IMG/VR virus record: IMGVR_UViG_3300010356_003454 | Coordinates: 72,820-136,819 of that record | Strand: one strand, 5' to 3' | Length of the DNA: 64,000 nucleotides | Origin: a virus | Lineage: Duplodnaviria > Heunggongvirae > Uroviricota > Caudoviricetes | Shown: positions 23 through 45,988 of the stretch, in pieces | How the letters are laid out: the number at the start of each line of letters is the position of its first letter | How positions within the stretch are numbered: position 1 is the first letter of the stretch | Notes under the pieces: generated by a model | Told to the model about the DNA's origin: nothing | The model's database searches: none | What the model saw: only the letters and a program-made list of their open reading frames with translations | Position numbers and translations under genes: made by a program

Positions 23-445
23 ATGGATGACGAATCAGATGATACTTTTGATCCGGATCAAGATATTTACGATAGAAATCCTGATTATGATGTAGAGGGA
101 GATAGAGAGGAATTTGAAGAGGACGGGGAAACAGAAGATGATGATTCTCTTGAGGGTGATTATGTTTTCGCAGTCAAAGTTATAGACGGGGATGAGGAAG
201 AGGATATTATTGCTAAATTCTATAGGGATGAAGATGATGATTTCTGGAAGGCTAGAGTCGTTCAAGGATCTGAAGAACCTATCGAGAGTATGCAATTTGA
301 TCCGGAGATGGAGAAATTGGATATCATTGAGCACCTAGCGACAATATATGACGAAGTTGAAGAGATAGATACAGAGGATTATGAAGAGATGTTAGACGAT
401 AAAGAAGTTATCGATGATATTTTTTATGATGATATAGTAAAATAA
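23..445 (+). CDS. highly acidic (D/E-rich) hypothetical protein
   Basis: Complete ORF with a strong D/E bias. No recognisable motifs. Confidence 0.4.
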   Translation: MDDESDDTFDPDQDIYDRNPDYDVEGDREEFEEDGETEDDDSLEGDYVFAVKVIDGDEEEDIIAKFYRDEDDDFWKARVVQGSEEPIESMQFDPEMEKLDIIEHLATIYDEVEEIDTEDYEEMLDDKEVIDDIFYDDIVK

Positions 446-6563: not shown

Positions 6564-8006
6564 ATGATTATTTCAATTGAGCAAAGACAGTCCAAATTAA
6601 TTGTTTCCCATATTAATAAAGAGGGAAATCTTGCTTATATGCAATTGAATATTCCTGTTTCCCATCAGTATTCCTATGTCTATTCAAAAAGTGCTGCAGG
6701 TGCTTTGCACGGAATTAAATCTTGGGATGGTAAACCTGTTAGAAAGGTTCCTGCTCCGTTTCTTTCCAGGCATCGTATTCAGGAATTTTTTATGGATGCG
6801 GGTGATCAATTAACGGCTCCTCTTTTCGAAAGAAATATGCCTAATCTATATTCTTGCGATATAGAGGTTGATGTAACTGATGATGGATTCGCAGAAGCTT
6901 CTGATGCTCGAAATAGAATTAATTCAATTGCTTGGTCTCATTATCCTGATGTAACAGTCTTTGGCCTGAAAGATTTATCAGGAGAACAATGTAACGAAGT
7001 CGAGACCGAAATAAACAATCACTTAAAACCTATTGGAAAGGAGTATAAGTTTGTTTATAAGAAGTATGAGAGCGAAAGCGATATGCTTTATGATTTTCTA
7101 TATAATTATGCTCGTCATGCTCCCCTAATTACTGGATGGCACTTTTGGAATTACGACTGGAGGTATATCTATAATAGGTGTAAGCGTCTTAATTTGGATA
7201 TTTCTTGGATGTCTCCGACTCGTCAGTGGTATAAGCATAAAATTATGGATCGGAACAACAGGGCTGATATATTTCTCCCCCAGCATAAGCTTATAGTTGA
7301 CTATATGGAGATTTATAAGAAGTGGGATAGGGTAATTGATCCAAAAGAGAATAACTCGTTAGACTTCGCTGCAGAGGCCGCATTAGGCATCACAAAAGTT
7401 AAGTATTCTGGAACATTTCAGGATCTCTATAGGGATTATCCTAAACATGTTTTCTACAACGCTATTGATACAATTCTTGTTGAGGAGATACACAATAAGC
7501 TAAAGACCATGGAGACATTCCTCGGTCTTGCTAATATCAATAGAGTTGAGGCAATGAATGCTTTTTCTCCTATTGCCATGCTCGAAGCAACGGCAACAAG
7601 ATATGCTTATAAAAGAGGCCTAGTTTTTCCAAAGGGCAATTTTGATAAAACTCGTGAGGATTATGAAGGGGCATTTGTATTTAAACCTACCCCCGATTTA
7701 TATGGTTGGGTGGCTGCTTTTGACTATGCTTCTCTTTATCCAAGTATTATGAGGCAGTTTAAGATTTCAATGGAAAATTTTGTGGGAAAGAATAAAGACT
7801 ATCAACCAAAACCTCATGAGATAAAATGTTCAAGCGGAGCTATTTTTGATGCTTCGGTAGAACCACTTCTTCCAGAGATACTTACTGATTACTATGCTCA
7901 GAGAAAGGAGGCTCAAATGATTGCCAAAAAAGCTGAGATTGAGGCTAATGAATTGAAAATGATCCTTAAAAAACGACTTAGTTCTGCACAAAAATCATTA
8001 TCTTAA
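6564..8006 (+). CDS. family B DNA polymerase, N-terminal part (3'-5' exonuclease + motif A only)
   Basis: Exo I is CDIEVDV, Exo II is WNYDWRYI and Exo III is YNAIDT. Pol motif A is FDYASLYPSIM, as in T4/RB69 gp43. The ORF ends about 95 aa after motif A and has no motif B (KxxxNSxYG) or motif C (YGDTDS). Confidence 0.75.
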   Translation: MIISIEQRQSKLIVSHINKEGNLAYMQLNIPVSHQYSYVYSKSAAGALHGIKSWDGKPVRKVPAPFLSRHRIQEFFMDAGDQLTAPLFERNMPNLYSCDIEVDVTDDGFAEASDARNRINSIAWSHYPDVTVFGLKDLSGEQCNEVETEINNHLKPIGKEYKFVYKKYESESDMLYDFLYNYARHAPLITGWHFWNYDWRYIYNRCKRLNLDISWMSPTRQWYKHKIMDRNNRADIFLPQHKLIVDYMEIYKKWDRVIDPKENNSLDFAAEAALGITKVKYSGTFQDLYRDYPKHVFYNAIDTILVEEIHNKLKTMETFLGLANINRVEAMNAFSPIAMLEATATRYAYKRGLVFPKGNFDKTREDYEGAFVFKPTPDLYGWVAAFDYASLYPSIMRQFKISMENFVGKNKDYQPKPHEIKCSSGAIFDASVEPLLPEILTDYYAQRKEAQMIAKKAEIEANELKMILKKRLSSAQKSLS

Positions 8007-16008: not shown

Positions 16009-16083
16009 CGATTTTTTAGCGATAATATTTTTTTATTAAGGATCTTTTTATTATATTTGTCCTATTAAAGGCAAAAAAGTAAT

Positions 16084-17970
16084 ATGATGGATCCAGACTT
16101 TAGACTTTTAGAAGACAGATATTTAAAAGCGAAAATCGCTTATTATGAGGGCAACCCAATTATGTCTGATGCAGAATTTGATGCATTAGAGGCTCATCTT
16201 AAATCATTGGGTTCTAAAGCTCCTGAACAAGTTGGAGCAAAGAGAAAGGACTTCGATTTCTCCCATCCCACGAAAATGCTCTCTCTGGCTAAACTTCAGA
16301 CTGAAGCAACTGAGGATGGAACAGATTATAAAGAAGAAGATTTTCGTAAGTGGGTGAATAAGAATAAAGCTATTCTTGGGGTTCTTCCCGAATTGGAGGC
16401 TTCTCCAAAATTTGACGGAAATGCTATTAATATAATATATCAGGGAACAAAACTTCATAACATCCTTACAAGAGGCGACGGTCTTACAGGTAAGGATATC
16501 ACAAAGAGAATGGCTCAGCACGTTCCCGATGAGCTTCTCCTCCTCGGACTGGATGTTCGGGATACTGATACGATCGAGATACGCGCGGAAGTAGTAATAG
16601 ATGTCCCTCTCTTTAATGAAAAATATGCTTCTGAATTTGCTAATGCTCGTAATTATGTTGCGGGAGTTATTGGAAAGGATGATGCAGATGAGATTAAGGC
16701 TTCAGAATTAACCGTAATTCCTCTTCATTTTCTTGTTAATGGAAAACACGTCGCATGGTCTCATTTCAAAAGAAATCTTTTTTCTTGTCAGAATTGGAAT
16801 TCATCTTTTATTCCTGACAATTATGTCTACACTATTCAGTCATTTGAGAAATTGAGAAAAACTCTCAACTACCAGCTTGACGGTGTCGTTATATCATTTC
16901 CAGCTCACGTCCGTGAAACTCTTGGTGAAAATGACCATGACCCTGAATGGGCTATAGCAATTAAATTCGTTCCGGTTGAGACGATTACAGAAGTTGATGG
17001 AATCGAATGGAATGTCTCAAAAAAAGGAGAAATAATGCCTACCGTTCTATTATCACCGGTATTTCTGGATGGATCTACAGTTCGCAGGGCCTCCGGATAT
17101 AATGCAGGCTATATTACTAATAAAGCTATAGGTGTTGGCGCTAAAGTATCTCTGGCTAAGGCGGGGGATATAATTCCTGAGATTCAGAAGGTTATAGCAG
17201 AAACCACAGAAACTTTCGTTCTTCCTTGCCAATGTCCTGCATGCGGATCCAAACTCACTTTTGATGGTATTCACCTTATGTGCACTAATAATATGTGCGA
17301 AGGCAAGATTGCTAAGCAATTGGCATCGGCTATTTCAATTTTGGATGTTAAGGGCGTAGGTGAAAAAACTATCGAACCATTCGCTAAGAAATTTGGAGAT
17401 ATTTATCAGGTGATGAAATGGGTCCTTTCCCAGCCAAATGCTCTTGGTGAATTTGGATTTGAAATAGGATCTAAGTCTCATCAGAATTTTGTAAATGCTT
17501 TTAAAAATATCAGATCCCTTACTTATGAGCAGGTTATTCAAATGCTCGGATATGAAAATGTTGGAAAGAAGCTCTCCGTTCAGCTCGCACGCGAGCACGC
17601 GGGATTAGAATATAATTATATGCACCTCGAAAAGGCCCTCGTTGCTAAACTTCGCTCTCCTGAAGTAAGCGGATATATCAAAGAGGTGGTTAAGGGATTA
17701 GAAGATCTTGGGATTTCAATTGATCGTCCCAAAGGGGAAACAGGGAATGGAACCAGCGTAGGCGTTTGCCTAACTGGTTCCCCCAAGGATTTTGGCTATG
17801 CTACAAAAGCTGAATTCCTTGCTAAATTCCCTAATGTTAAAGAGGTATCACTTACAGATTCCTCATGTAAATATCTTGTTACTGATTCTTATCAGTCTAC
17901 AAGCAGCAAGATGAAAACTGCAGAGAAGAAGGGAATAAAAATATTAACTTATGGAGATTTTAAAATATGA
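16084..17970 (+). CDS. ligA: NAD-dependent DNA ligase
   Basis: Ia domain (YYEGNPIMSDAEFDALE). Adenylation Lys in KFDG. Zn finger CPACGSKLTFDGIHLMC. C-terminal HhH and BRCT-like region. Length 628 aa. Confidence 0.8.
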   Translation: MMDPDFRLLEDRYLKAKIAYYEGNPIMSDAEFDALEAHLKSLGSKAPEQVGAKRKDFDFSHPTKMLSLAKLQTEATEDGTDYKEEDFRKWVNKNKAILGVLPELEASPKFDGNAINIIYQGTKLHNILTRGDGLTGKDITKRMAQHVPDELLLLGLDVRDTDTIEIRAEVVIDVPLFNEKYASEFANARNYVAGVIGKDDADEIKASELTVIPLHFLVNGKHVAWSHFKRNLFSCQNWNSSFIPDNYVYTIQSFEKLRKTLNYQLDGVVISFPAHVRETLGENDHDPEWAIAIKFVPVETITEVDGIEWNVSKKGEIMPTVLLSPVFLDGSTVRRASGYNAGYITNKAIGVGAKVSLAKAGDIIPEIQKVIAETTETFVLPCQCPACGSKLTFDGIHLMCTNNMCEGKIAKQLASAISILDVKGVGEKTIEPFAKKFGDIYQVMKWVLSQPNALGEFGFEIGSKSHQNFVNAFKNIRSLTYEQVIQMLGYENVGKKLSVQLAREHAGLEYNYMHLEKALVAKLRSPEVSGYIKEVVKGLEDLGISIDRPKGETGNGTSVGVCLTGSPKDFGYATKAEFLAKFPNVKEVSLTDSSCKYLVTDSYQSTSSKMKTAEKKGIKILTYGDFKI

Positions 17971-34999: not shown

Positions 35000-35755
35000 A
35001 TGAAAGAAGAATTTTCACCACTGACAATTGAGAAATTAGAGCATTATGTCTATACACTTTCTGATTCTCGGACCGGCCAGGTTTTCTATGTAGGTAAGGG
35101 AGTTGGAAACAGAGTATTTTCTCATGTGAATGATGCTCTGGAAACAGAATCAGAATCAGATAAACTGGATCATATTAGATATCTGATAGCTAAAGGATTC
35201 CCGCCAAAACATACTATAGTCCGCCATGGAATGGACAAGGATACGGCATTTGAGGTTGAAGGAGCTCTTATTGATGCATTTCAATTAGAAGGCCTTAAGA
35301 ATGAGGTAAATGGCCATCATAACAATCAGAGAGGACGTCGGGATTGGCAGGATATAGAAATCGAGTATGGAGCCGTTTCAGCGACCATAGACGATCCTGT
35401 TATCATACTTAAGACATCAGATTGGAGTTGGGATAAAGTGTCTAATACGGTCATATATGATAATATACGCAAAGGCTGGTGGGTCTCAGGTGATAAGAGG
35501 AAGAAGATCAAGTATGCATTGGCTATAAAGTCAGGTATTGTTAGAGAGGTCTATGCTATAGACCATTGGGACGATAACTGGGGAATTACTAACAAGAAGG
35601 GAACTGCATGTAAGAAGGATTTTGTTGGAACTGTGGCTCCTGTAGAGATCAGGGATAAGTATATCTATAAGGATGTTTCGGCATATTTTGCTATTCCGAG
35701 ATTACAGAAAGCATATGTTAATGTAGATGACAAAAAGAAGGAAAAAAATCCATAA
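35000..35755 (+). CDS. GIY-YIG nuclease-like protein
   Basis: HYVYTLSDSRTGQVFYVGKGVGNRVFSH has the GIY-YIG core plus a conserved Arg. Confidence 0.5.
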   Translation: MKEEFSPLTIEKLEHYVYTLSDSRTGQVFYVGKGVGNRVFSHVNDALETESESDKLDHIRYLIAKGFPPKHTIVRHGMDKDTAFEVEGALIDAFQLEGLKNEVNGHHNNQRGRRDWQDIEIEYGAVSATIDDPVIILKTSDWSWDKVSNTVIYDNIRKGWWVSGDKRKKIKYALAIKSGIVREVYAIDHWDDNWGITNKKGTACKKDFVGTVAPVEIRDKYIYKDVSAYFAIPRLQKAYVNVDDKKKEKNP

Positions 35756-38128: not shown

Positions 38129-38157
38129 TTTTTTCTTAAATTTTAACGTTTTTTCTT

Positions 38158-38187
38158 CCCAAACATCGTTGGTGTTTGGGAATTTTT
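38158..38187 (+). terminator. rho-independent terminator in a conserved module
   Basis: cccaaaca/tgtttggg stem followed by T-run. Preceded by AATTTTTTCTTAAATTTTAACG, which is identical to the sequence at 49742. Confidence 0.5.
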
Positions 38188-38220
38188 GTTTATATTTATA
38201 GTGTAATTAAACTTAGTGAG

Positions 38221-40626
38221 ATGAAAAAATTATATTTAGTGATCTACATTTACACAGATTACAGGAATTACAAAATTGGAAAAGCTGCTAGATATGCATC
38301 TTCACCCGAAGAAGCAGCAAAAATTCGTATTTCGGAACAAACTACAGCAGCTACTTATGGTAATTGGAAATTAGTAGATGTATTGGTGATTTCCAGAGAA
38401 GGCCTAGATCCTTTATTTGTAGAAGCATATATTCATAATCGGATACAGGAATTGGGATATGAAAGACTTCATCGTAATGTCCAGTTTTCAGAAAAAGATA
38501 TTAAAGAAGGCCTTTCAGAATGGTTTAATTTTAGAAAACTTAATGAATTTAAGGTAAAGCGTCTTATACGCGAAATTTTTTCTGAGATTAATCATGCATC
38601 AGGCCAGAAATTTTATATCCCAAGATTTTATCAAGCTCTGGTAAAGGCTATTACTTTAGATAAAATAGAATCTGGATTAATGGAATCGGATTCGATAACA
38701 ATAGCATTGGAGCTTGCTCCGAGATTTGGAAAAACCCTATGGGCATTAGATCTATTTAATGAGTTAAGATATTTAGGAATTAATGTTTTGATCCTCCCAA
38801 CTTTTGTATTATCCTCGACTTCTTCTTTTACTAAAGAGATTACAAGTTTTGGTGATTTCGAACATTTTTATCTTTTGGATTCATCGGATTCAGAATTTGA
38901 TAAAAAACTTAAAGAATCGAAGGAATCAGGAAAGATAATGGTTATTGGGGTTTCTATGCATATGTCAGAGGATTCTTTGAAAAAATATAAAAAATCAATG
39001 AGCATCATTAGCAAAGATAGGATTATGTCTATTGTCGATGAGGCTGATTTTGGGGCTCATACAGAATCAAGCCGGGAAGTTTTGAATGCGGTAGATTCAA
39101 AAATAACGCTTTTGATGACGGGTACTGCTATTGAAAGAGCTATCAAAGGGCTTGTATTTATCCAAAATAATATAATTATTTGGACTCAGACAGATATGCA
39201 AATGGTTAAAAAGGGAACTCATCCTATTCTTCAATATATTGGGGATGGGGACAAACAATTTTCCAACAGGGTTAATTCAGTTTTGAAAAAATATACAATA
39301 GAAGAAGCAAAAAAAAGCTGTGCTAATCTTCCAGAAATAGAAATGCTTAAATTAAATCTTTCAAATATTTCTATTTTGCAAGAAATGCAGGATATTGAAT
39401 TAAGAGGTAAATGGACAAAAATTCTTACTGATGTTAATCAGAGCAAATCTATTATAAAAACAGTCTATAAGGGCCTTTTCGATTTCCCGAATATGGAATT
39501 TGATAATCCCGATCTAAAGAATATGAGCAAAATTTATCTTCGGAAAAAATGCAGGTTAGGAGTTACTATGATTTTTGGAGGATTTCCAAACAAAAAAGAG
39601 CAAAAAGCTTTTGTAAAATTCCTTCAAACCATACTAGGTGATAATTTTGAGGTTTATGAAATAAATGGAGATGTAACTACAAATAAAAAAGCGGAAGAAA
39701 AAGCAAAAAGAATTATCGCCAAAAATAAATTAAATAGGGAAGAAGGAGTGGATAGACAGATAATCTTTGTTTCCAAGGATATGGCTTCTCGAAGTTTTTC
39801 AATTTCCGAAATTGATACTGTAATACTTATGTATGACAGGGGAATGATCAATTCAACCGCCCAGAAAATCTCAAGGGCATTTACTCCTGGTAATAACTTA
39901 TATGACGAAGAGAAATTGGTTTCACACGTCGTTAGTTTAAGCCTGGATGCATCAAGAGAACACTGTCCTATTGATCTTTACATAATTCAGGAGGCAGCTA
40001 GAATTGGGGAATATGATCCAAATGGATCTATAGAGGGTCCAATTAAGAACGTAGCTTCCTGCTATAATATCTTCCAGAATACAGATAATGGATTTCTCCC
40101 AATAGAAATGGATGACTATTCCCAATTCTTGATTGAAGGAGCAGGATCTGATTTATTAAGAATTGCTAGCTCAACAGTAGATGTATCAGATCTCGGATCC
40201 ATAATTCTTTCGATGGATCAGGAAATGATAGATTTTTTGGATCTTGCATCTCCTAATGGGTCTAATAAACAAAAATCTAAAGGCAGAACGGAGATATCTG
40301 TTAATGAGGTGAAGACCTATTATAATAATCATAGAGGTCCAAATGATGAAAAAATAAAAACATTGGAAGAAAAATTATCAGAAGTTCTCAGAGATATTAA
40401 CTATTGTGTGCCAGATTTAGTTATGCTTGATGATTATAGACATGATAATATTTCGGATATAATTGGAAATCTCTATAATATGCCTGAAATATACAAAGAT
40501 ATTGAAGAGGATTTAGGTTTTTCTATAGTCCTTGCAAAATATTTACTTCCATATCTTAATCATAGACTTCTTAATACAGCAATAGAAATTTTTATTAAGG
40601 AAGAGGATAAATTTTTCATTATATAA
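38221..40626 (+). CDS. T5orf172/GIY-YIG-like N-terminal domain fused to SF2 DEAD-type helicase
   Basis: N-terminal YLVIYIYTDYRNYKIGKA...EWF is T5orf172-like. Walker A is APRFGKT. Motif II is VDEADF. Motif III is LLMTGTA. Motif VI is QKISRAF. Confidence 0.55.
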   Translation: MKKLYLVIYIYTDYRNYKIGKAARYASSPEEAAKIRISEQTTAATYGNWKLVDVLVISREGLDPLFVEAYIHNRIQELGYERLHRNVQFSEKDIKEGLSEWFNFRKLNEFKVKRLIREIFSEINHASGQKFYIPRFYQALVKAITLDKIESGLMESDSITIALELAPRFGKTLWALDLFNELRYLGINVLILPTFVLSSTSSFTKEITSFGDFEHFYLLDSSDSEFDKKLKESKESGKIMVIGVSMHMSEDSLKKYKKSMSIISKDRIMSIVDEADFGAHTESSREVLNAVDSKITLLMTGTAIERAIKGLVFIQNNIIIWTQTDMQMVKKGTHPILQYIGDGDKQFSNRVNSVLKKYTIEEAKKSCANLPEIEMLKLNLSNISILQEMQDIELRGKWTKILTDVNQSKSIIKTVYKGLFDFPNMEFDNPDLKNMSKIYLRKKCRLGVTMIFGGFPNKKEQKAFVKFLQTILGDNFEVYEINGDVTTNKKAEEKAKRIIAKNKLNREEGVDRQIIFVSKDMASRSFSISEIDTVILMYDRGMINSTAQKISRAFTPGNNLYDEEKLVSHVVSLSLDASREHCPIDLYIIQEAARIGEYDPNGSIEGPIKNVASCYNIFQNTDNGFLPIEMDDYSQFLIEGAGSDLLRIASSTVDVSDLGSIILSMDQEMIDFLDLASPNGSNKQKSKGRTEISVNEVKTYYNNHRGPNDEKIKTLEEKLSEVLRDINYCVPDLVMLDDYRHDNISDIIGNLYNMPEIYKDIEEDLGFSIVLAKYLLPYLNHRLLNTAIEIFIKEEDKFFII

Positions 40627-40676
40627 TCGTTAACTTTACGAAATATTTATTATATTTAAGTATAAATTATAACTAA

Positions 40677-41942
40677 GTGAGTAACTTTAATAAATATTGG
40701 ACTGCTAGGGGGAACTCAAAAAAAGCCGAGGTTTTTACCCCGTCTTTTTTAGTCAGAGAAATGCTTGATAAAATTCCTGCAGAAATTTGGAGGAGTTCAG
40801 AAACTATATTTTTAGATCCTTGCTTTGGATCCGGAACATTCATAAAATGCATCATTGAAAAGCTAAGGGAATATGGACATAGTGATGAGAATATTTCTAA
40901 AAGGATCTGGGGAGTAGAAATTAATAGAAAATGGTATAATAGGGTAAAACATTTCAGGATTGGCGAGTATAATATAAGAAACATCTATTGTGTAGATGCT
41001 CTAAATACAAATATTTTAGATGGTATGAAGTTTGATGTAGTATGTGGGAATCCGCCTTATCAGGGGAAAAAATTAGGGGGTGGAGCTGGATCTGGAAATG
41101 CTATATGGCATAAATTTGTAGTAAATGCTTTTAATGCTCTAAAGGAGAACGGATACCTTTGCTTAATTCATCCTATAGATTGGAGAACTAATCTTTCGCA
41201 GAAAAAGATTGAATCTGCTAGGAAAATTTTGATGACGAATCAAATAGAATATTTAAAATTAGCATCAGCCCCATTCCCTGGTATAGGAGCTTATGTTGAT
41301 TGGTATATTCTGAAAAAACGTGAGAAAAAAGAAAATACTTTAATAGATTTTCTGGATTGCCAAAAAAATGTTTTTTTAGATAATAAATTATTTCCTCTAT
41401 ATTCTTATAACAGCGATACTGTAAATTCAATAAAATCGAAAGTTTTAATGGATGCTACAAATAATCTAAATATGAGGAAACCATTTCACGGGTTAACTAT
41501 ATTAGATAGGTCTAAGCCAAAAGGAAAATATAAATTTGCTCATGGAACCGGATATACAAAAAATGAATGGAAATATTATGATTATCCGCATATTCATCAA
41601 TATCATAAAAAGGTTATAATGTCTTCCGTTAGGATACCTAGAGCTATTTATGATGATGGGAATATAGGGATCGGGGATCATGTTCATTATATTTTGGTTA
41701 ATAATAAGGAAGAGGGGGAATTTCTAACCTCTGTGATAAATAGCAAGCTTGGTATATTTCTGCAAAAGATTTTCGTTACTACCTTTTGGGATGGCGAATC
41801 CTCTCATTGGAATAATCCATATCCAATCTCTAAATTAAAAATAGACAATAGGAAATTCGAATCGGATATAGAGATCTATGATTATTTTGGATTAAGTAAG
41901 GAGGAGAGAGAATACATTGATAAAGAACTAAGAACCAAATAA
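40677..41942 (+). CDS. N6-adenine DNA methyltransferase (Eco57I/gamma-class-like)
   Basis: Motif I is LDPCFGSGTF. Motif IV is CGNPPYQG. GTG start. An in-frame TAA lies immediately upstream. Confidence 0.65.
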   Translation: MSNFNKYWTARGNSKKAEVFTPSFLVREMLDKIPAEIWRSSETIFLDPCFGSGTFIKCIIEKLREYGHSDENISKRIWGVEINRKWYNRVKHFRIGEYNIRNIYCVDALNTNILDGMKFDVVCGNPPYQGKKLGGGAGSGNAIWHKFVVNAFNALKENGYLCLIHPIDWRTNLSQKKIESARKILMTNQIEYLKLASAPFPGIGAYVDWYILKKREKKENTLIDFLDCQKNVFLDNKLFPLYSYNSDTVNSIKSKVLMDATNNLNMRKPFHGLTILDRSKPKGKYKFAHGTGYTKNEWKYYDYPHIHQYHKKVIMSSVRIPRAIYDDGNIGIGDHVHYILVNNKEEGEFLTSVINSKLGIFLQKIFVTTFWDGESSHWNNPYPISKLKIDNRKFESDIEIYDYFGLSKEEREYIDKELRTK

Positions 41943-41950
41943 TTAAATTT

Positions 41951-42817
41951 ATGAATATTTTCGAATTTTTACTAACATCTATTTTAAACTTCATGGTTGG
42001 AGTGTTAATTGCCTATTATTGCACACGATTTTGGGCTATTAAAACAAGTCCTGGCAAATCTTTATTGGATCAGCTAGCAAAAGATACATATTCTTTTTTT
42101 CAGGAAAATGGGGGAATGGAAGTTAGCGAAAATTATGTATTTTTTCATGTTCATAATAATTTTTTATTAGATTCGATTTATGATTATTATAGTAAGGATT
42201 TTTTTAAGAAGAGAGATGAGATTCAAAGAAATACCGGATATTTGAATAAAAAATATAAGGATTTTTTTTATTGCGTAGATAATTTATATAAAGGAATAAA
42301 CCAATTTTATATGAGCTATAAAGCTCAGTCAAAATTAGCAGATCATTACAGAGAAGAACTTATAAATTATTTTTCGGGACCTAGTAAATGGGATATAAAA
42401 GTTCCATATATTCTTTATTTTTTAGACAAAATGACTGGAGAAAATGAGATTTTTAAAAATTTTAGAGAGAATTTTTTAGATTATTATTTAAAATTAGGAA
42501 AATATAAAGATGTAAATACCGTTTCATTCCAATATGATCCTCATGAAATGAAACAGATTTTAAATTTATTTATTTTAAATAAGGATTTTTTTAAAAAGAC
42601 TATAAAAGAATTGGAATTAGGAGTTTCTACTATAACTAGCGAAAAATCCTGCAGAAAATATTATAGATCTGGTGAAATAATAAAATTATTGGAGGATTAT
42701 GAGGATTGCAAAAATAAACTAACTAATATTGAATTAGATAATAAGAAAGAAATAAAATATCTTATAGGGAAGATTCGAAACCATAAGTTATATCAATCAA
42801 TAAATAGTAAAAAATAG
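41951..42817 (+). CDS. membrane-anchored hypothetical protein
   Basis: N-terminal TM helix. K/Y/F-rich. Confidence 0.35.
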   Translation: MNIFEFLLTSILNFMVGVLIAYYCTRFWAIKTSPGKSLLDQLAKDTYSFFQENGGMEVSENYVFFHVHNNFLLDSIYDYYSKDFFKKRDEIQRNTGYLNKKYKDFFYCVDNLYKGINQFYMSYKAQSKLADHYREELINYFSGPSKWDIKVPYILYFLDKMTGENEIFKNFRENFLDYYLKLGKYKDVNTVSFQYDPHEMKQILNLFILNKDFFKKTIKELELGVSTITSEKSCRKYYRSGEIIKLLEDYEDCKNKLTNIELDNKKEIKYLIGKIRNHKLYQSINSKK

Positions 42818-42840: not shown

Positions 42841-43056
42841 ATGGAAGATCGATGGTACACATATAAAGAAATCCTCCAATTATTTGGGATCTGTAAGCAG
42901 ACTCTTTATAACTGGAGGAATAATGGTACTATCGAATACAAAGAAATTACTAAAAAGACTTTCTTGTATAAGCTTCCAAAAGAGAAAAATATTCAAAAAA
43001 ATGGATTACAAGAAGATTTACGAATCGATAATAGCGAAAGCAAAGAGCGAGAATAG
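42841..43056 (+). CDS. Xis/MerR-like HTH DNA-binding ORF
   Basis: YTYKEILQLFGICKQTLYNWRNNGTI is HTH_17-like. The last 56 nt overlap the HNH gene in the +1 frame across an A7 run. Confidence 0.4.
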   Translation: MEDRWYTYKEILQLFGICKQTLYNWRNNGTIEYKEITKKTFLYKLPKEKNIQKNGLQEDLRIDNSESKERE

Positions 43057-43696
43057 GAATAAGGGAAATGGAATTTATTATGAATCTCATCATATAGTTC
43101 CAAAATGTCTATGTGGATCAGATACTAAAGATAATAGAGTTCTTTTAACGGCTAAAGAGCATTTTGTTTGTCATAAGCTACTGGCAAGGATTTATCCAGA
43201 TAGTAATGGTATACGATTTTCGTTCTTTTTAATGTGTCAATCCAGCGATAATCAAGAAAGATATCAAATTTCCTCCAGAGATTATGAATATGCTTGTGAA
43301 TTAAATCGCCAAGCTTGTTTGGGAAATAGATGGAGAAGAGGAAAGAAAGCTCCTCATTCGGAGGAAACTAAAAAAATACTAAGCAAACATTTTTCGGAAC
43401 ATCTACCAAAATATGCTTTTAAAAAGGGAATGATTCCTTGGAATAAAAATACATTAACAGAGGATCAGAAGAAATATATTAAAGAGCATACATTATCGAT
43501 GGAATATATTTCTAAAAAATTTGGGATATCCAAAAGACAAGCAGGAGATTTAAAACATGGACATATAGATGGAAAAAGATTGGGAGTTACTGAAAAAGAT
43601 ATCCAATATATCAGAGAGCATACTCAAAATTGTGTTCAAATAGCTAATAAATTTAAAACAACTCAGAGAATTGTGAGTATAATTAAAAATAGTTAA
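43001..43696 (+). CDS. HNH homing endonuclease
   Basis: YESHHIVPKCLCGSDTKDNRVLLTAKEHFVCH is an HNH motif. Confidence 0.6.
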   Translation: MDYKKIYESIIAKAKSENRNKGNGIYYESHHIVPKCLCGSDTKDNRVLLTAKEHFVCHKLLARIYPDSNGIRFSFFLMCQSSDNQERYQISSRDYEYACELNRQACLGNRWRRGKKAPHSEETKKILSKHFSEHLPKYAFKKGMIPWNKNTLTEDQKKYIKEHTLSMEYISKKFGISKRQAGDLKHGHIDGKRLGVTEKDIQYIREHTQNCVQIANKFKTTQRIVSIIKNS

Positions 43697-44143
43697 ATGG
43701 ACGAGATAAAAAAGAAGGAATTAGAGGAGAGAAGAAAGGCCCGAAGAAAAATCAGCGCGGAAGATTTTACTCCGATTGAATTAGTTAATGAAATGCTCGA
43801 TAAGTTACCTGCTGAAGTATGGGCCGATCCTAATAAGACCTTTTTGGATAACAGTGGAGGAAATGGAAATTTTGTTGTTGAAGTATTAAGAAGAAAATTA
43901 GAAAGGGGCCACGATCCTCTTCAGGCTCTGTCCACAATATATTCTGTAGAACTAATGTATGATAACGTTGAAGAGATGCATCATCGCATGTACTCAATTG
44001 TTAAAGATTTTCTCCATACTCAAGAAGATAAAGACAAGGCATTCAAAATAATCAAGGAGAATCTGGTCTGCCACGACGCATTGACCTGGGATTACGAAAA
44101 CTGGTGCTCACCAAATACTCATCACGCAGTTCCTCTTTTTTAA
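43697..44143 (+). CDS. methyltransferase N-terminal-domain paralog (lacks catalytic NPPY half)
   Basis: FTPIELVNEMLDKLPAEVW...FLDNSGGNGNF aligns with residues of the 40677 MTase (FTPSFLVREMLDKIPAEIW...FLDPCFGSGTF). The ORF ends before motif IV. Confidence 0.45.
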   Translation: MDEIKKKELEERRKARRKISAEDFTPIELVNEMLDKLPAEVWADPNKTFLDNSGGNGNFVVEVLRRKLERGHDPLQALSTIYSVELMYDNVEEMHHRMYSIVKDFLHTQEDKDKAFKIIKENLVCHDALTWDYENWCSPNTHHAVPLF

Positions 44144-44758: not shown

Positions 44759-45988
44759 ATGAGAGCTCGATTTGTACTTTACGAATTCGCTAAAAACAAA
44801 GATTCTAAATATTATGCTCCTGATTATCTTATACAGGAGCTTATGGATGCTGTTAACAAGTATGTTCCTCTCCATGAGATAGATCATATAGTTGAACCAG
44901 CTTCTGGCGACGGAGCGCTAATACCTTTTATTGATAAGATAGCTAATGCCTATAATATTGATACCAGCTATTATGATCTAAAACCAGATCCAGGCAATCC
45001 TCGTATTGAACAGCAAAACTTCTTAGACTATTCTCCAGAACCATATTTCAGTCCATCTAGGCTTGTACTCACAGGACCACCTTATGGGGAACCTGGAGCT
45101 ACAGCCAAACTATGGAAGCAGTTCGCTCAGAAGGCTTCAGAGGTGGCAGGATATGTCGCTTTTATCTCTCCGGTTACTTGGCTTGATGTGAAACATCCTG
45201 TTCCTCATCTAGAACTTATCTATCAGAAGGACATGGGGTGGGTTAAATTCAGGGGCAGCGAAGCTTTCGGCGGTGAAGACCATCCTGTTAAGACTGCTAT
45301 ACTTATCTATAAAACTATCAAAGAGCCACAAACTGAAGACTTTTCATTTATAGATAACGATTTCATTATTCAGGAGATCTATGGTCGTGATAACTTCAGG
45401 AATAGAAAATACGATTATTATATTCTCTCCTGGGGCCGTGATTCAGGCAGAGTTAATACCTCAGGAAGGTATCCTGATGGCCGACTATTTTCTAAGGCAA
45501 TTGGAATAAAGGTCTTGGATGAGGCTCGTAGGGATGATTTAGAAGCGTTTTTAGAGACTTTCGAACAGGACTATAAGGATAAGATCGCCAGATACTCAAT
45601 TACAACAGCTAATGTCTTAAGTGTGCCTCGTTTTAAGAGATTTCTCGGAAACGCTCTATATTCGGGGATGAATGAATCTATAGACTTCGAAAGAGAAGGG
45701 AATCCATACGAGAAATTACGTATCGGTCGTAAGGTAACAAGGCCTTATCCTCAAATGAAGCCGAAAGAATTTTTTCAATGGTATCAGTCTGAGGCCTTTC
45801 CATATTATGATTCCGATGAGTTCTCTTTTTCTAGCGTGCTTTCAGATCTTGTTAATGACGAGGAGTCTACAGATGAAGAACTTCGAGAGGTATGGACTGA
45901 AGAACTTGATGTTCCAGAAGAAGTTATAGATAAACTATTACCTATGCGGGGTTATTTCTTAGATTTCCGCTATATTCAGAACATATGA
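44759..45988 (+). CDS. MRAR-leader protein with methyltransferase-like fold (non-canonical GPPY) and C-terminal FERG module
   Basis: Leader MRARFVLYEF. Motif-I-like EPASGDGAL. TGPPYGE sits where NPPY would be. A C-terminal FEREGNPYEKLRIGR...RPYPQM...MRGYF module is paralogous to the 46607 C-terminus. Confidence 0.5.
   Translation: MRARFVLYEFAKNKDSKYYAPDYLIQELMDAVNKYVPLHEIDHIVEPASGDGALIPFIDKIANAYNIDTSYYDLKPDPGNPRIEQQNFLDYSPEPYFSPSRLVLTGPPYGEPGATAKLWKQFAQKASEVAGYVAFISPVTWLDVKHPVPHLELIYQKDMGWVKFRGSEAFGGEDHPVKTAILIYKTIKEPQTEDFSFIDNDFIIQEIYGRDNFRNRKYDYYILSWGRDSGRVNTSGRYPDGRLFSKAIGIKVLDEARRDDLEAFLETFEQDYKDKIARYSITTANVLSVPRFKRFLGNALYSGMNESIDFEREGNPYEKLRIGRKVTRPYPQMKPKEFFQWYQSEAFPYYDSDEFSFSSVLSDLVNDEESTDEELREVWTEELDVPEEVIDKLLPMRGYFLDFRYIQNI

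Follow-up and report, generated by a model that had tools for sequence, protein, structure and literature searches.

The 64,000-nucleotide stretch analysed here (hereafter the window; positions 72,820 to 136,819 of the IMG/VR record IMGVR_UViG_3300010356_003454, Caudoviricetes) belongs to a large phage genome. The genes of the window are all on one strand and include those for a DNA polymerase, a ribonucleotide reductase, an NAD-dependent ligase and a tRNA nucleotidyltransferase. The subject of this analysis is a gene for an 801-amino-acid (aa) protein in which a T5orf172-like domain of the GIY-YIG clan is joined to an ATPase motor of helicase superfamily 2 (SF2), together with two genes downstream of it, one encoding an N6-adenine methyltransferase and the other a small protein resembling half of a methyltransferase. 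These three genes form a cassette that is conserved in dozens of phage loci. The features of the locus are collected in Table 1.

Table 1. Features of the motor, methyltransferase and small-protein locus, in window coordinates; protein positions refer to the product of the gene concerned.
Feature	Protein position	Coordinates	Strand	Details
Intrinsic-terminator-like hairpin		38156..38182	+	12-bp stem, 5 G-C pairs, loop 3, then TTTTTGTTTA
Promoter-like element		38180..38198	+	GAAnnnTTTnnTTATATTTA; -7 box TATATTTA 38191-38198, 22 nucleotides before ATG
T5orf172-SF2 motor gene		38221..40626	+	801 aa; putative nuclease-translocase subunit
T5orf172/MUG113-like (GIY-YIG clan) domain	1-125	38221..38595	+	conserved Y9, K18, G20, R36, Q40, H72, E100, W101
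SF2 ATPase core		38620..39882	+	Q motif to motif VI
Motif Q	134-138			PRFYQ
Motif I	166-172	38716-38736	+	APRFGKT
Motif Ia	191-197	38791-38811	+	ILPTFVL
Motif II	273-276	39037-39048	+	DEAD
Motif III	299-303	39115-39129	+	MTGTA
Motif V	518-527	39772-39801	+	SKDMASRSFS
Motif VI	548-554	39862-39882	+	QKISRAF
C-terminal helical region	~581-801	39961..40623	+	disordered linker 679-709; from secondary structure and predicted local distance difference test (pLDDT)
-7-box-like element		40651..40658	+	TATATTTA; 18 nucleotides upstream of methyltransferase start codon
Eco57I-type gamma-class N6-adenine methyltransferase gene		40677..41942	+	421 aa, GTG start; PF07669 E 1.5e-14, N6_Mtase 1.3e-10
Methyltransferase motif X	18-22	40728-40742	+	
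Methyltransferase motif I	47-55	40815-40841	+	
Methyltransferase motif II	79-82	40911-40922	+	
Methyltransferase motif III	104-109	40986-41003	+	
Methyltransferase motif IV	125-128	41049-41060	+	NPPY
ORF of unknown function		41951..42817	+	288 aa, hydrophobic N-terminus; between methyltransferase and small gene; no Pfam match
Homing-endonuclease insertion		42841..43696	+	HTH_17 ORF 42841-43056 (8e-7) and HNH ORF 42884-43696
Small third gene, half-methyltransferase-like		43697..44143	+	148 aa; phrog_21201, 1.3e-20
Small-gene motifs		X 43760-43774, I 43847-43873, II 43943-43954, III 44066-44083	+	ends where NPPY would come

The motor gene occupies the sole substantial open reading frame (ORF) at its locus, which ends at 40626 and begins at 38221 or, with an alternative upstream TTG codon, at 38176; internal minus-strand ORFs are 53-65 aa long. 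The ATG at 38221 is the true start, because the -7 box falls downstream of the TTG and because the closest homologs (P0001 and P0002) open with the same MKKLYLVIYIY as the window protein translated from this ATG.

The N-terminal domain had been assigned to the T5orf172/MUG113 type in a first-pass annotation made from the sequence of the window, and this assignment was borne out. The strings VIYIY (aa 7-11), YKIGKA (17-22), KIRISEQ (34-40) and SEWFNF (99-104) were located in the window protein, whose N-terminus carries insertions; residues 1-125 alone did not match the Pfam T5orf172 and MUG113 models at E up to 1. The majority consensus of the aligned N-terminal domains scored 42.6 bits against PF10544 (E 9.1e-11, cutoff 20) and 24.3 bits against PF13455 (MUG113; cutoff 22.3). 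Individual homologs matched PF10544 in 12 of 47 cases (best E 4.4e-10) and PF13455 in 7 of 47. Over 62 distinct N-termini from related loci, the positions typical of GIY-YIG domains are nearly invariant: Y9 and G20 in all 62, K18 in 58, and E100 in 59 with Asp in the other three; R36 is kept in 49. The whole signature, namely the Tyr of strand 1, K-x-G of strand 2, the Arg of helix 1 and the Glu of the E-W-F strand, is present in the window protein.

No unrelated fold emerged from structural comparison of this domain; the matches were viral T5orf172 and Bro proteins and the GIY-YIG nucleases SLX1 and HIGLE. Against predicted viral structures the probabilities reached 1.0, yet E was no better than 6e-3. 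The best of these weak matches were baculovirus Bro proteins and proteins named "T5 Orf172 DNA-binding domain", and further ones were a 691-aa protein of Synechococcus phage ACG-2014f and a 1138-aa "Eco57I methylase" of an uncultured phage. Thus at the family level the N-terminus is supported as a member of the T5orf172/MUG113 group of the GIY-YIG clan. Its nuclease-type residues appear to be under purifying selection, and nuclease activity is predicted. In the study of the phage ICP1 protein Odn, the T5orf172 domain is aligned with solved GIY-YIG nucleases and keeps the catalytic Arg and Glu; it is treated there as the likely catalytic module, in a section titled "Gp88 is an origin-directed nuclease" (PMC8263062). 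T5orf172 is also listed among the nuclease domains of adenine-methylating restriction-modification systems (PMC4738411).

The helicase motifs I, II, III and VI proposed in the first-pass annotation are all present in the second part of the protein, accompanied by motifs Q, Ia and V. In an alignment of 47 sequences, Q138, RFGKT 168-172, DEAD 273-276, G301 and T302, R306, Q548 and R552 are invariant, and such invariance of the motif residues appears to exceed chance by far. The window motor itself hits a single Pfam model, ResIII, with 22.1 bits, which is below the cutoff of 22.5; among the 47 members, ResIII was found in 24 and Helicase_C in 25. The family combines the Pfam match and the two-lobed RecA-like core that characterize SF2 helicase-like ATPases. 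Searches against PDB sequences, both with the single sequence and with a profile, gave no match to the motor. Its closest structural neighbours are double-stranded DNA (dsDNA) translocases of the Snf2 type and of restriction enzymes, and in these models the motor looks like a dsDNA translocase of this kind, so that translocation is predicted.

The designation as an SF2 DEAD helicase is therefore only partly retained. The SF2 motor stands, whereas the DEAD label fits the letters of motif II only. Canonical DEAD-box proteins have SAT in motif III and HRxGRxGR in motif VI. The motor lacks both and has TGT and QKISRAF instead, and its structural neighbours are Snf2 and restriction translocases; a DEAD-box RNA helicase was accordingly rejected. 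Downstream of the motor core, the C-terminal helical region may serve as a coupler or docking part, because in fused relatives it is placed between the motor and the methyltransferase.

The methyltransferase gene follows immediately downstream, as had been noted earlier; the two genes are separate in the window, with a gap of 50 nucleotides, and their pairing is kept across dozens of phage loci. The methyltransferase also matches the PADLOC mad2 and Type II methyltransferase models. Its motifs stand in the order X, I, II, III, IV, which is that of gamma-class N6-adenine methyltransferases, and the C-terminal ~290 aa are presumed to be the target-recognition part. The GTG start at 40677 is supported by a related locus (L083), as the latter has ATG at this position.

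The small third gene, which had not figured in the earlier description of a motor-methyltransferase pair, is part of the conserved unit. Its product is a paralog of the N-terminal half of the methyltransferase and retains motif X (EVFTP), motif I (D-x-S-x-G-x-G-x-F) and motifs II and III. For the small protein, 305 homologs were found; the 120 of them that were listed are 57-94% identical, and all but one are unnamed or called "hypothetical protein". Where the contexts sampled included upstream DNA, the small gene again stands last in the cassette, in T4-like genomes that have Portal_T4 and gp13 nearby; two of the contexts (L086 and L087) begin at a contig end.

To compare neighbourhoods, the loci of relatives, 75 of them taken from viral contigs and others from assemblies, were scanned with purpose-built hidden Markov models (HMMs). 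The order is motor, methyltransferase of ~370-420 aa, small protein of ~125-190 aa. In 67 loci the DNA downstream of the motor extends for 2.2 kb or more; among these, the methyltransferase is adjacent or fused to the motor in 55, the small gene is present in 53, and both are present in 52. This adjacency, together with repeated fusion, excludes a coincidental neighbourhood. No further gene is common to more than 16 of 81 loci, and therefore the cassette is self-contained and placed in varied phage backgrounds. One subgroup has an unannotated ~800-aa protein encoded directly upstream of the motor (L001:7571-9949, L003:7550-9955). This gene was considered as a further member of the module and dropped, as only 7 of 81 loci have it and the window does not.

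Fusions of the motor with the methyltransferase were found in P0033 and P0052 (~1140 aa) and in L088 (1345 aa). Among the 147 new representatives listed from the profile search, 18 are at least 950 aa long, and 15 of these have the methyltransferase at the C-terminus; when long representatives were compared with the Pfam Eco57I model, 6 of 8 matched. The order in the fusions is nuclease-like domain, motor, helical linker, gamma-class methyltransferase, recognition part. In 31 loci, on the other hand, the motor is encoded in two pieces, with the break between its RecA lobes. L069, L080 and L089 have arrays of 2-4 methyltransferase genes for a single motor. In two of these loci, 2-3 methyltransferase genes lie between the motor halves (L069:938-8861, with four in total, and L080:5563-9356), an arrangement that looks like a multi-specificity array.

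The recognition half of the methyltransferase is swapped or diverged between close relatives. The motor of L085 is 98% identical to that of the window, and the DNA of the two loci is 96% identical up to position 41065, just past NPPY, and unrelated beyond it. The L083 methyltransferase diverges sharply in the same half. Such turnover is typical of restriction-modification systems. The L085 methyltransferase gene (L085:5102-6246) is seemingly frameshifted, with ORFs of 176 and 217 aa, which reflects either a homopolymer sequencing error or a phase-variable or decaying gene.

In a sister clade of 10 loci (L013, L014, L018-L021, L023, L032, L047, L072), the motor is followed by a ~290-aa methyltransferase-derived protein (HMM columns 104-359; hhalign probability 80%, E 1.4e-5) in which NPPY is replaced by a sequence of the xxKFP type. 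The third position is taken by a Mom-family gene in nine of these loci (PF25680, 4.5e-19) and by a Dam-type methyltransferase in one. In this clade the motor-nuclease and a recognition-like partner persist, while the adenine-modifying enzyme is exchanged. One possibility considered was a strictly split methyltransferase, with the small protein supplying the half that binds S-adenosylmethionine (SAM). It was downgraded to a mere possibility, as L022, L034, L038, L046 and L049 keep a compact N-terminal half: the seemingly N-truncated methyltransferases mostly retain an EPGxG-type N-half of ~65 aa, and only those of L058 and L059 start at NPPY.

The family is sizeable and entirely without annotation. 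A word-indexed search returned 71 homologs of the motor, and an exhaustive profile search returned 1107 cluster representatives at E<=1e-3, 740 at 1e-10 and 406 at 1e-30; the 406 stand for clusters made at 50% identity. Among 50,697 deposited phage records, tblastn with the motor retrieved just two distant family members, Synechococcus phage S-CAM7 and one uncultured jumbo phage, and megablast with 24 kb of the window found no close relative. When 185,579 bacterial and archaeal species, each represented by one genome, were scanned with narrow peptide patterns, there was one partial match, in an archaeal metagenome-assembled genome. When a fused relative was compared with plasmids by tblastn, the matches were confined to methyltransferase motifs X-IV. 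Thus, within the reach of these searches, the motor family is viral. Nearly all occurrences of the cassette were in large phages, which include T4-like cyanophages and probably phages of Bacteroidota, and the cassette appears to be confined to phages of the virulent type. In the cultured carrier S-CAM7, a split motor, the methyltransferase and the small protein are the products of the genes CC030809_00053-56, all annotated as "hypothetical protein", and therefore the cassette is directly testable.

The motor gene is preceded by a terminator-like hairpin, which ends the upstream block of small ORFs. The first-pass annotation had a terminator module copied before both genes. However, neither the hairpin scan nor the sequence revealed anything comparable upstream of the methyltransferase, and the hairpin is found before the motor only. 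The shared upstream stretch that had also been described does exist: both regions contain TATATTTA...AGTGAG with a one-base indel, and the loose pattern TATATT-N15-25-AGTGAG has 2 matches in place of the 0.25 expected. Its core GAAnnnTTTnATTATATTT(G/A), also written TTATATTT(A/G), lies ~30 nucleotides (27-32) before start codons and was found at 16052, 35784, 38191, 40651, 52831 and 59573, so that, with upstream GAA...TTT, it precedes the genes at 16084, 35813, 52858 and 59603 as well. The copy nearest to that of the motor, GTAATTAAA included, is the one before 35813 and not the one before the methyltransferase. The element resembles what we take to be the Bacteroidota -7 box, TAnnTTTG, and hints at a Bacteroidota host. 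Because the same element occurs at six or more sites, it is predicted to be a generic promoter of this host type. A dedicated element co-regulating the motor and the methyltransferase, as suggested earlier, was therefore dropped, also because the terminator is not duplicated. The arrangement argues for independent transcription of the two genes. Expression is probably early, since both carry host-type promoters within a block of small genes.

The cassette of the window is interrupted between the methyltransferase and the small gene. The 288-aa ORF located there lies outside the conserved module; in L083, which is 89% identical, a different ORF of 176 aa stands in its place. The helix-turn-helix (HTH) and HNH insertion that follows directly abuts the start of the small gene and is also present in L083. 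The HNH homing endonuclease (phrog_655, 1.5e-42) has a probable start near 43004. In L084, a NUMOD3 endonuclease occupies the equivalent region, and in most other loci the small gene directly adjoins the methyltransferase.

Other genes of the surrounding region may be mentioned. A further methyltransferase-like gene at 44759-45988 (409 aa, phrog_799) has the motif I EPASGDGAL and TGPPYG where (N/D/S)PPY is expected, and the region from 40.6 to 46 kb of the window is a methyltransferase-rich island. A LEM-3-like GIY-YIG protein is encoded at 35000-35755 (PF22945 4.4e-15; phrog_5356 3.3e-48), 2.5 kb upstream of the motor; the early-looking block of small ORFs contains two genes of the GIY-YIG clan, this one and that of the motor. 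The DNA polymerase ORF at 6564-8006 has only 480 aa and covers positions 99-499 of an 856-position PHROG profile; the polymerase of this phage may be split or interrupted.

The reading that we favour, with a probability of about 0.45, is that the cassette is a phage-borne ATP-dependent restriction-modification module resembling the Type ISP and YeeABC systems. The earlier comparison of the helicase and methyltransferase pair with a defence or anti-defence module is supported, and the linkage across dozens of loci and the repeated fusion make the pairing firmer than could be told from the window. In the proposed mechanism, the methyltransferase would bind a short, probably asymmetric site via its variable C-terminal half and methylate an adenine in it, marking the phage DNA as self. 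At an unmodified site it would instead activate the motor, which would hydrolyse ATP and translocate on dsDNA in the manner of Type ISP, Type I and Type III motors, delivering the T5orf172 domain for a nick or a cut. The module would be directed at unmodified DNA of the host chromosome, of co-infecting rival phages, or of both, inside the infected cell. The small subunit would bind SAM as a structural or regulatory partner of the methyltransferase; where the latter is reduced, its SAM-binding half may come from the small subunit.

Put in its most specific form, this would mean that large virulent phages carry an offensive restriction-modification enzyme, a GIY-YIG-type nuclease on a dsDNA motor with a swappable methyltransferase and recognition subunit. 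It would destroy unmodified host or rival DNA and spare the phage's own N6-modified DNA (methylated, or bearing a Mom-type modification in the sister clade). The NPPY-less half-methyltransferase would then be an accessory subunit of a new kind that binds SAM, as a regulator or as a half that complements the methyltransferase in trans. We advance this version tentatively and regard it as somewhat doubtful.

Several observations weigh against a restriction-modification module. The function of every family member is deduced from sequences and models, and the PADLOC, NCBIfam and PHROG models do not match the motor. The Bacillus subtilis YeeABC analogue showed no restriction activity (PMC9973331). 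A lytic phage that restricts unmodified DNA must spare its own newly replicated DNA. The R36 position of the nuclease-like domain aligns to Tyr in 11 of the 62 N-termini, which may reflect misalignment or a catalytic Arg that has been lost. Finally, turnover of the recognition half is equally expected if the methyltransferase tracks variable host restriction systems.

The last point leads to a counter-defence role, in which the motor would move or load the methyltransferase (or Mom or Dam) on phage DNA for fast and complete self-modification against restriction, bacteriophage exclusion (BREX) or similar systems, and the T5orf172 domain would be a DNA-binding anchor, or a nickase giving the motor entry, akin to P1 DarB. 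Mom is an anti-restriction modification in phage Mu, and the motor family is linked to three adenine-N6-modifying enzymes, Eco57I-type, Mom and Dam. The turnover fits the tracking of variable host restriction specificities, a further methyltransferase-like gene (44759-45988) is nearby, the cassette is seemingly limited to virulent-type large phages, and UniProt calls the T5orf172 domain "DNA-binding". However, the Mom and Dam linkage and the turnover fit counter-defence and restriction equally well, whereas the near-invariant Tyr, Arg and Glu at catalytic-type positions are unexpected for a mere anchor, and the Mom clade keeps an NPPY-less partner beside the motor that is more like the recognition subunit of an effector. 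These two features are explained less well by counter-defence than by restriction. Besides, ordinary orphan methyltransferases of phages work without a motor, and tblastn against the 50,697 phage records, which returned only the two distant family members, revealed no sequence similarity to P1 DarB. Counter-defence is the main rival of the restriction-modification reading, and we consider it the less probable of the two.

Two further explanations have lower probability. The cassette could be a selfish "homing restriction-modification" element: T5orf172 would cut co-infecting genomes that lack the cassette, the motor would process the break, the methyltransferase would immunise the carrier, and recombinational repair would spread the element. 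T5orf172 has been proposed as a widespread family of phage homing endonucleases (Barth et al. 2023, as cited in PMC11296320; PMC8263062). The unrelated neighbourhoods with no other conserved neighbour, the patchy occurrence among related phages and the insertion of further homing endonucleases into the cassette itself (HNH in the window, NUMOD3 in L084) are in line with such mobility. However, this proposal is largely a special case of restriction-modification. Classical homing endonucleases are small, have no ATPase motor and recognize long fixed targets, and an old and diverse family (406 clusters at 50% identity, E<=1e-30) that keeps its full-length architecture suggests a function useful to the phage. 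A homing element is thus improbable. Still less credible, to the point of being hardly tenable, is a general replication, recombination or repair helicase-nuclease, with T5orf172 as a junction resolvase, or an RNA helicase, with the methyltransferase as a chance neighbour. According to a proposal of Iyer et al., the T5orf172 proteins of jumbo phages act in recombination (PMC7824862), the A859L protein of African swine fever virus (ASFV), with T5orf172, ResIII and Helicase_C and no linked methyltransferase, is annotated as an RNA helicase (PMC8777736), and motif II does read DEAD. On the other hand, the adjacency in 55 of 67 loci and the repeated covalent fusion exclude coincidence, and motifs III (TGT) and VI (QKISRAF) are not those of DEAD-box proteins.

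If the restriction-modification reading is true, phages without hydroxymethylcytosine (hmC) would gain a way to tell their own DNA from that of the host; an analogue is the GIY-YIG endonuclease II of T4 combined with hmC. It would also add a fourth nuclease-motor-methyltransferase architecture to Types I, ISP and III, and provide a phage reservoir of readily swappable adenine-methyltransferase specificities. Motor-assisted methylation for counter-defence would be new as well. The fusion of T5orf172 with an SF2 motor is in itself already known from ASFV A859L (PMC8777736). In a limited search of the full-text literature on T5orf172 with helicase, methyltransferase or phage, no description of the phage cassette or of the half-methyltransferase subunit was found.

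Several known systems resemble the cassette in part. In phage P1, DarB and the phage-borne Type III system EcoP1I likewise provide a phage-encoded adenine methyltransferase and an SF2 helicase-like ATPase. DarB differs in being larger than 2000 aa, packaged in the virion and devoid of a nuclease domain, and in EcoP1I the Res subunit has a C-terminal PD-(D/E)xK nuclease and Mod is a beta-class methyltransferase. The position and the fold of the nuclease distinguish the cassette from Type III systems in general, as Res carries its PD-(D/E)xK domain at the C-terminus. There is no HsdS-like gene in the window or in the conserved module, and therefore Type I is excluded; T5orf172 also stands in place of the PD-(D/E)xK domain of HsdR.

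By architecture, ASFV A859L and the related fusions of large eukaryotic DNA viruses are similar to the window protein, with N-terminal T5orf172, ResIII and Helicase_C in one polypeptide (PMC8777736), but they belong to eukaryotic viruses, no linked methyltransferase is reported for them and A859L is annotated as an RNA helicase. ICP1 Odn (Gp88) shares with the window protein a T5orf172 domain in which the catalytic Arg and Glu are kept, but in Odn this domain is guided by a RepA-type DNA-binding domain, and there is neither an ATPase motor nor a methyltransferase (PMC8263062).

The closest likenesses are to Type ISP and to YeeABC. Morgan et al. proposed that dnmA/yeeA-yeeB-yeeC is a Type I-like restriction-modification system with single-strand methylation (PMC2731913), and Vibrio crassostreae became more sensitive to phage when its homologs of dnmA and yeeB were deleted, according to a citation in PMC9973331. 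In domain composition this operon is like the cassette, with an N6-adenine methyltransferase, an SF2 helicase and T5orf172 in one conserved unit. However, the YeeABC helicase and T5orf172 are separate proteins, the methyltransferase is large, MmeI-like (without the nuclease) and first in order, there is no small half-methyltransferase, and the operons reside in cellular defence islands and not in a viral cassette. For Type ISP enzymes, both the architecture and a translocation-collision mechanism have been described (PMC4666363, PMC3553950). The fused relatives of the window protein reproduce their domain order exactly, from the nuclease through the motor, the linker and the gamma-class methyltransferase to the recognition part, while no sequence similarity to Type ISP was detected in the PDB sequence and profile searches or in the plasmid tblastn. 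The nuclease is T5orf172 of the GIY-YIG clan and not Mrr/PD-(D/E)xK; the window has separate motor and methyltransferase genes and a small subunit in place of a single chain; and the cassette is found in virulent-type phages, whereas Type ISP enzymes are encoded on bacterial plasmids and chromosomes. Thus, by analogy, the cassette would work like Type ISP and YeeABC systems while being a member of neither.

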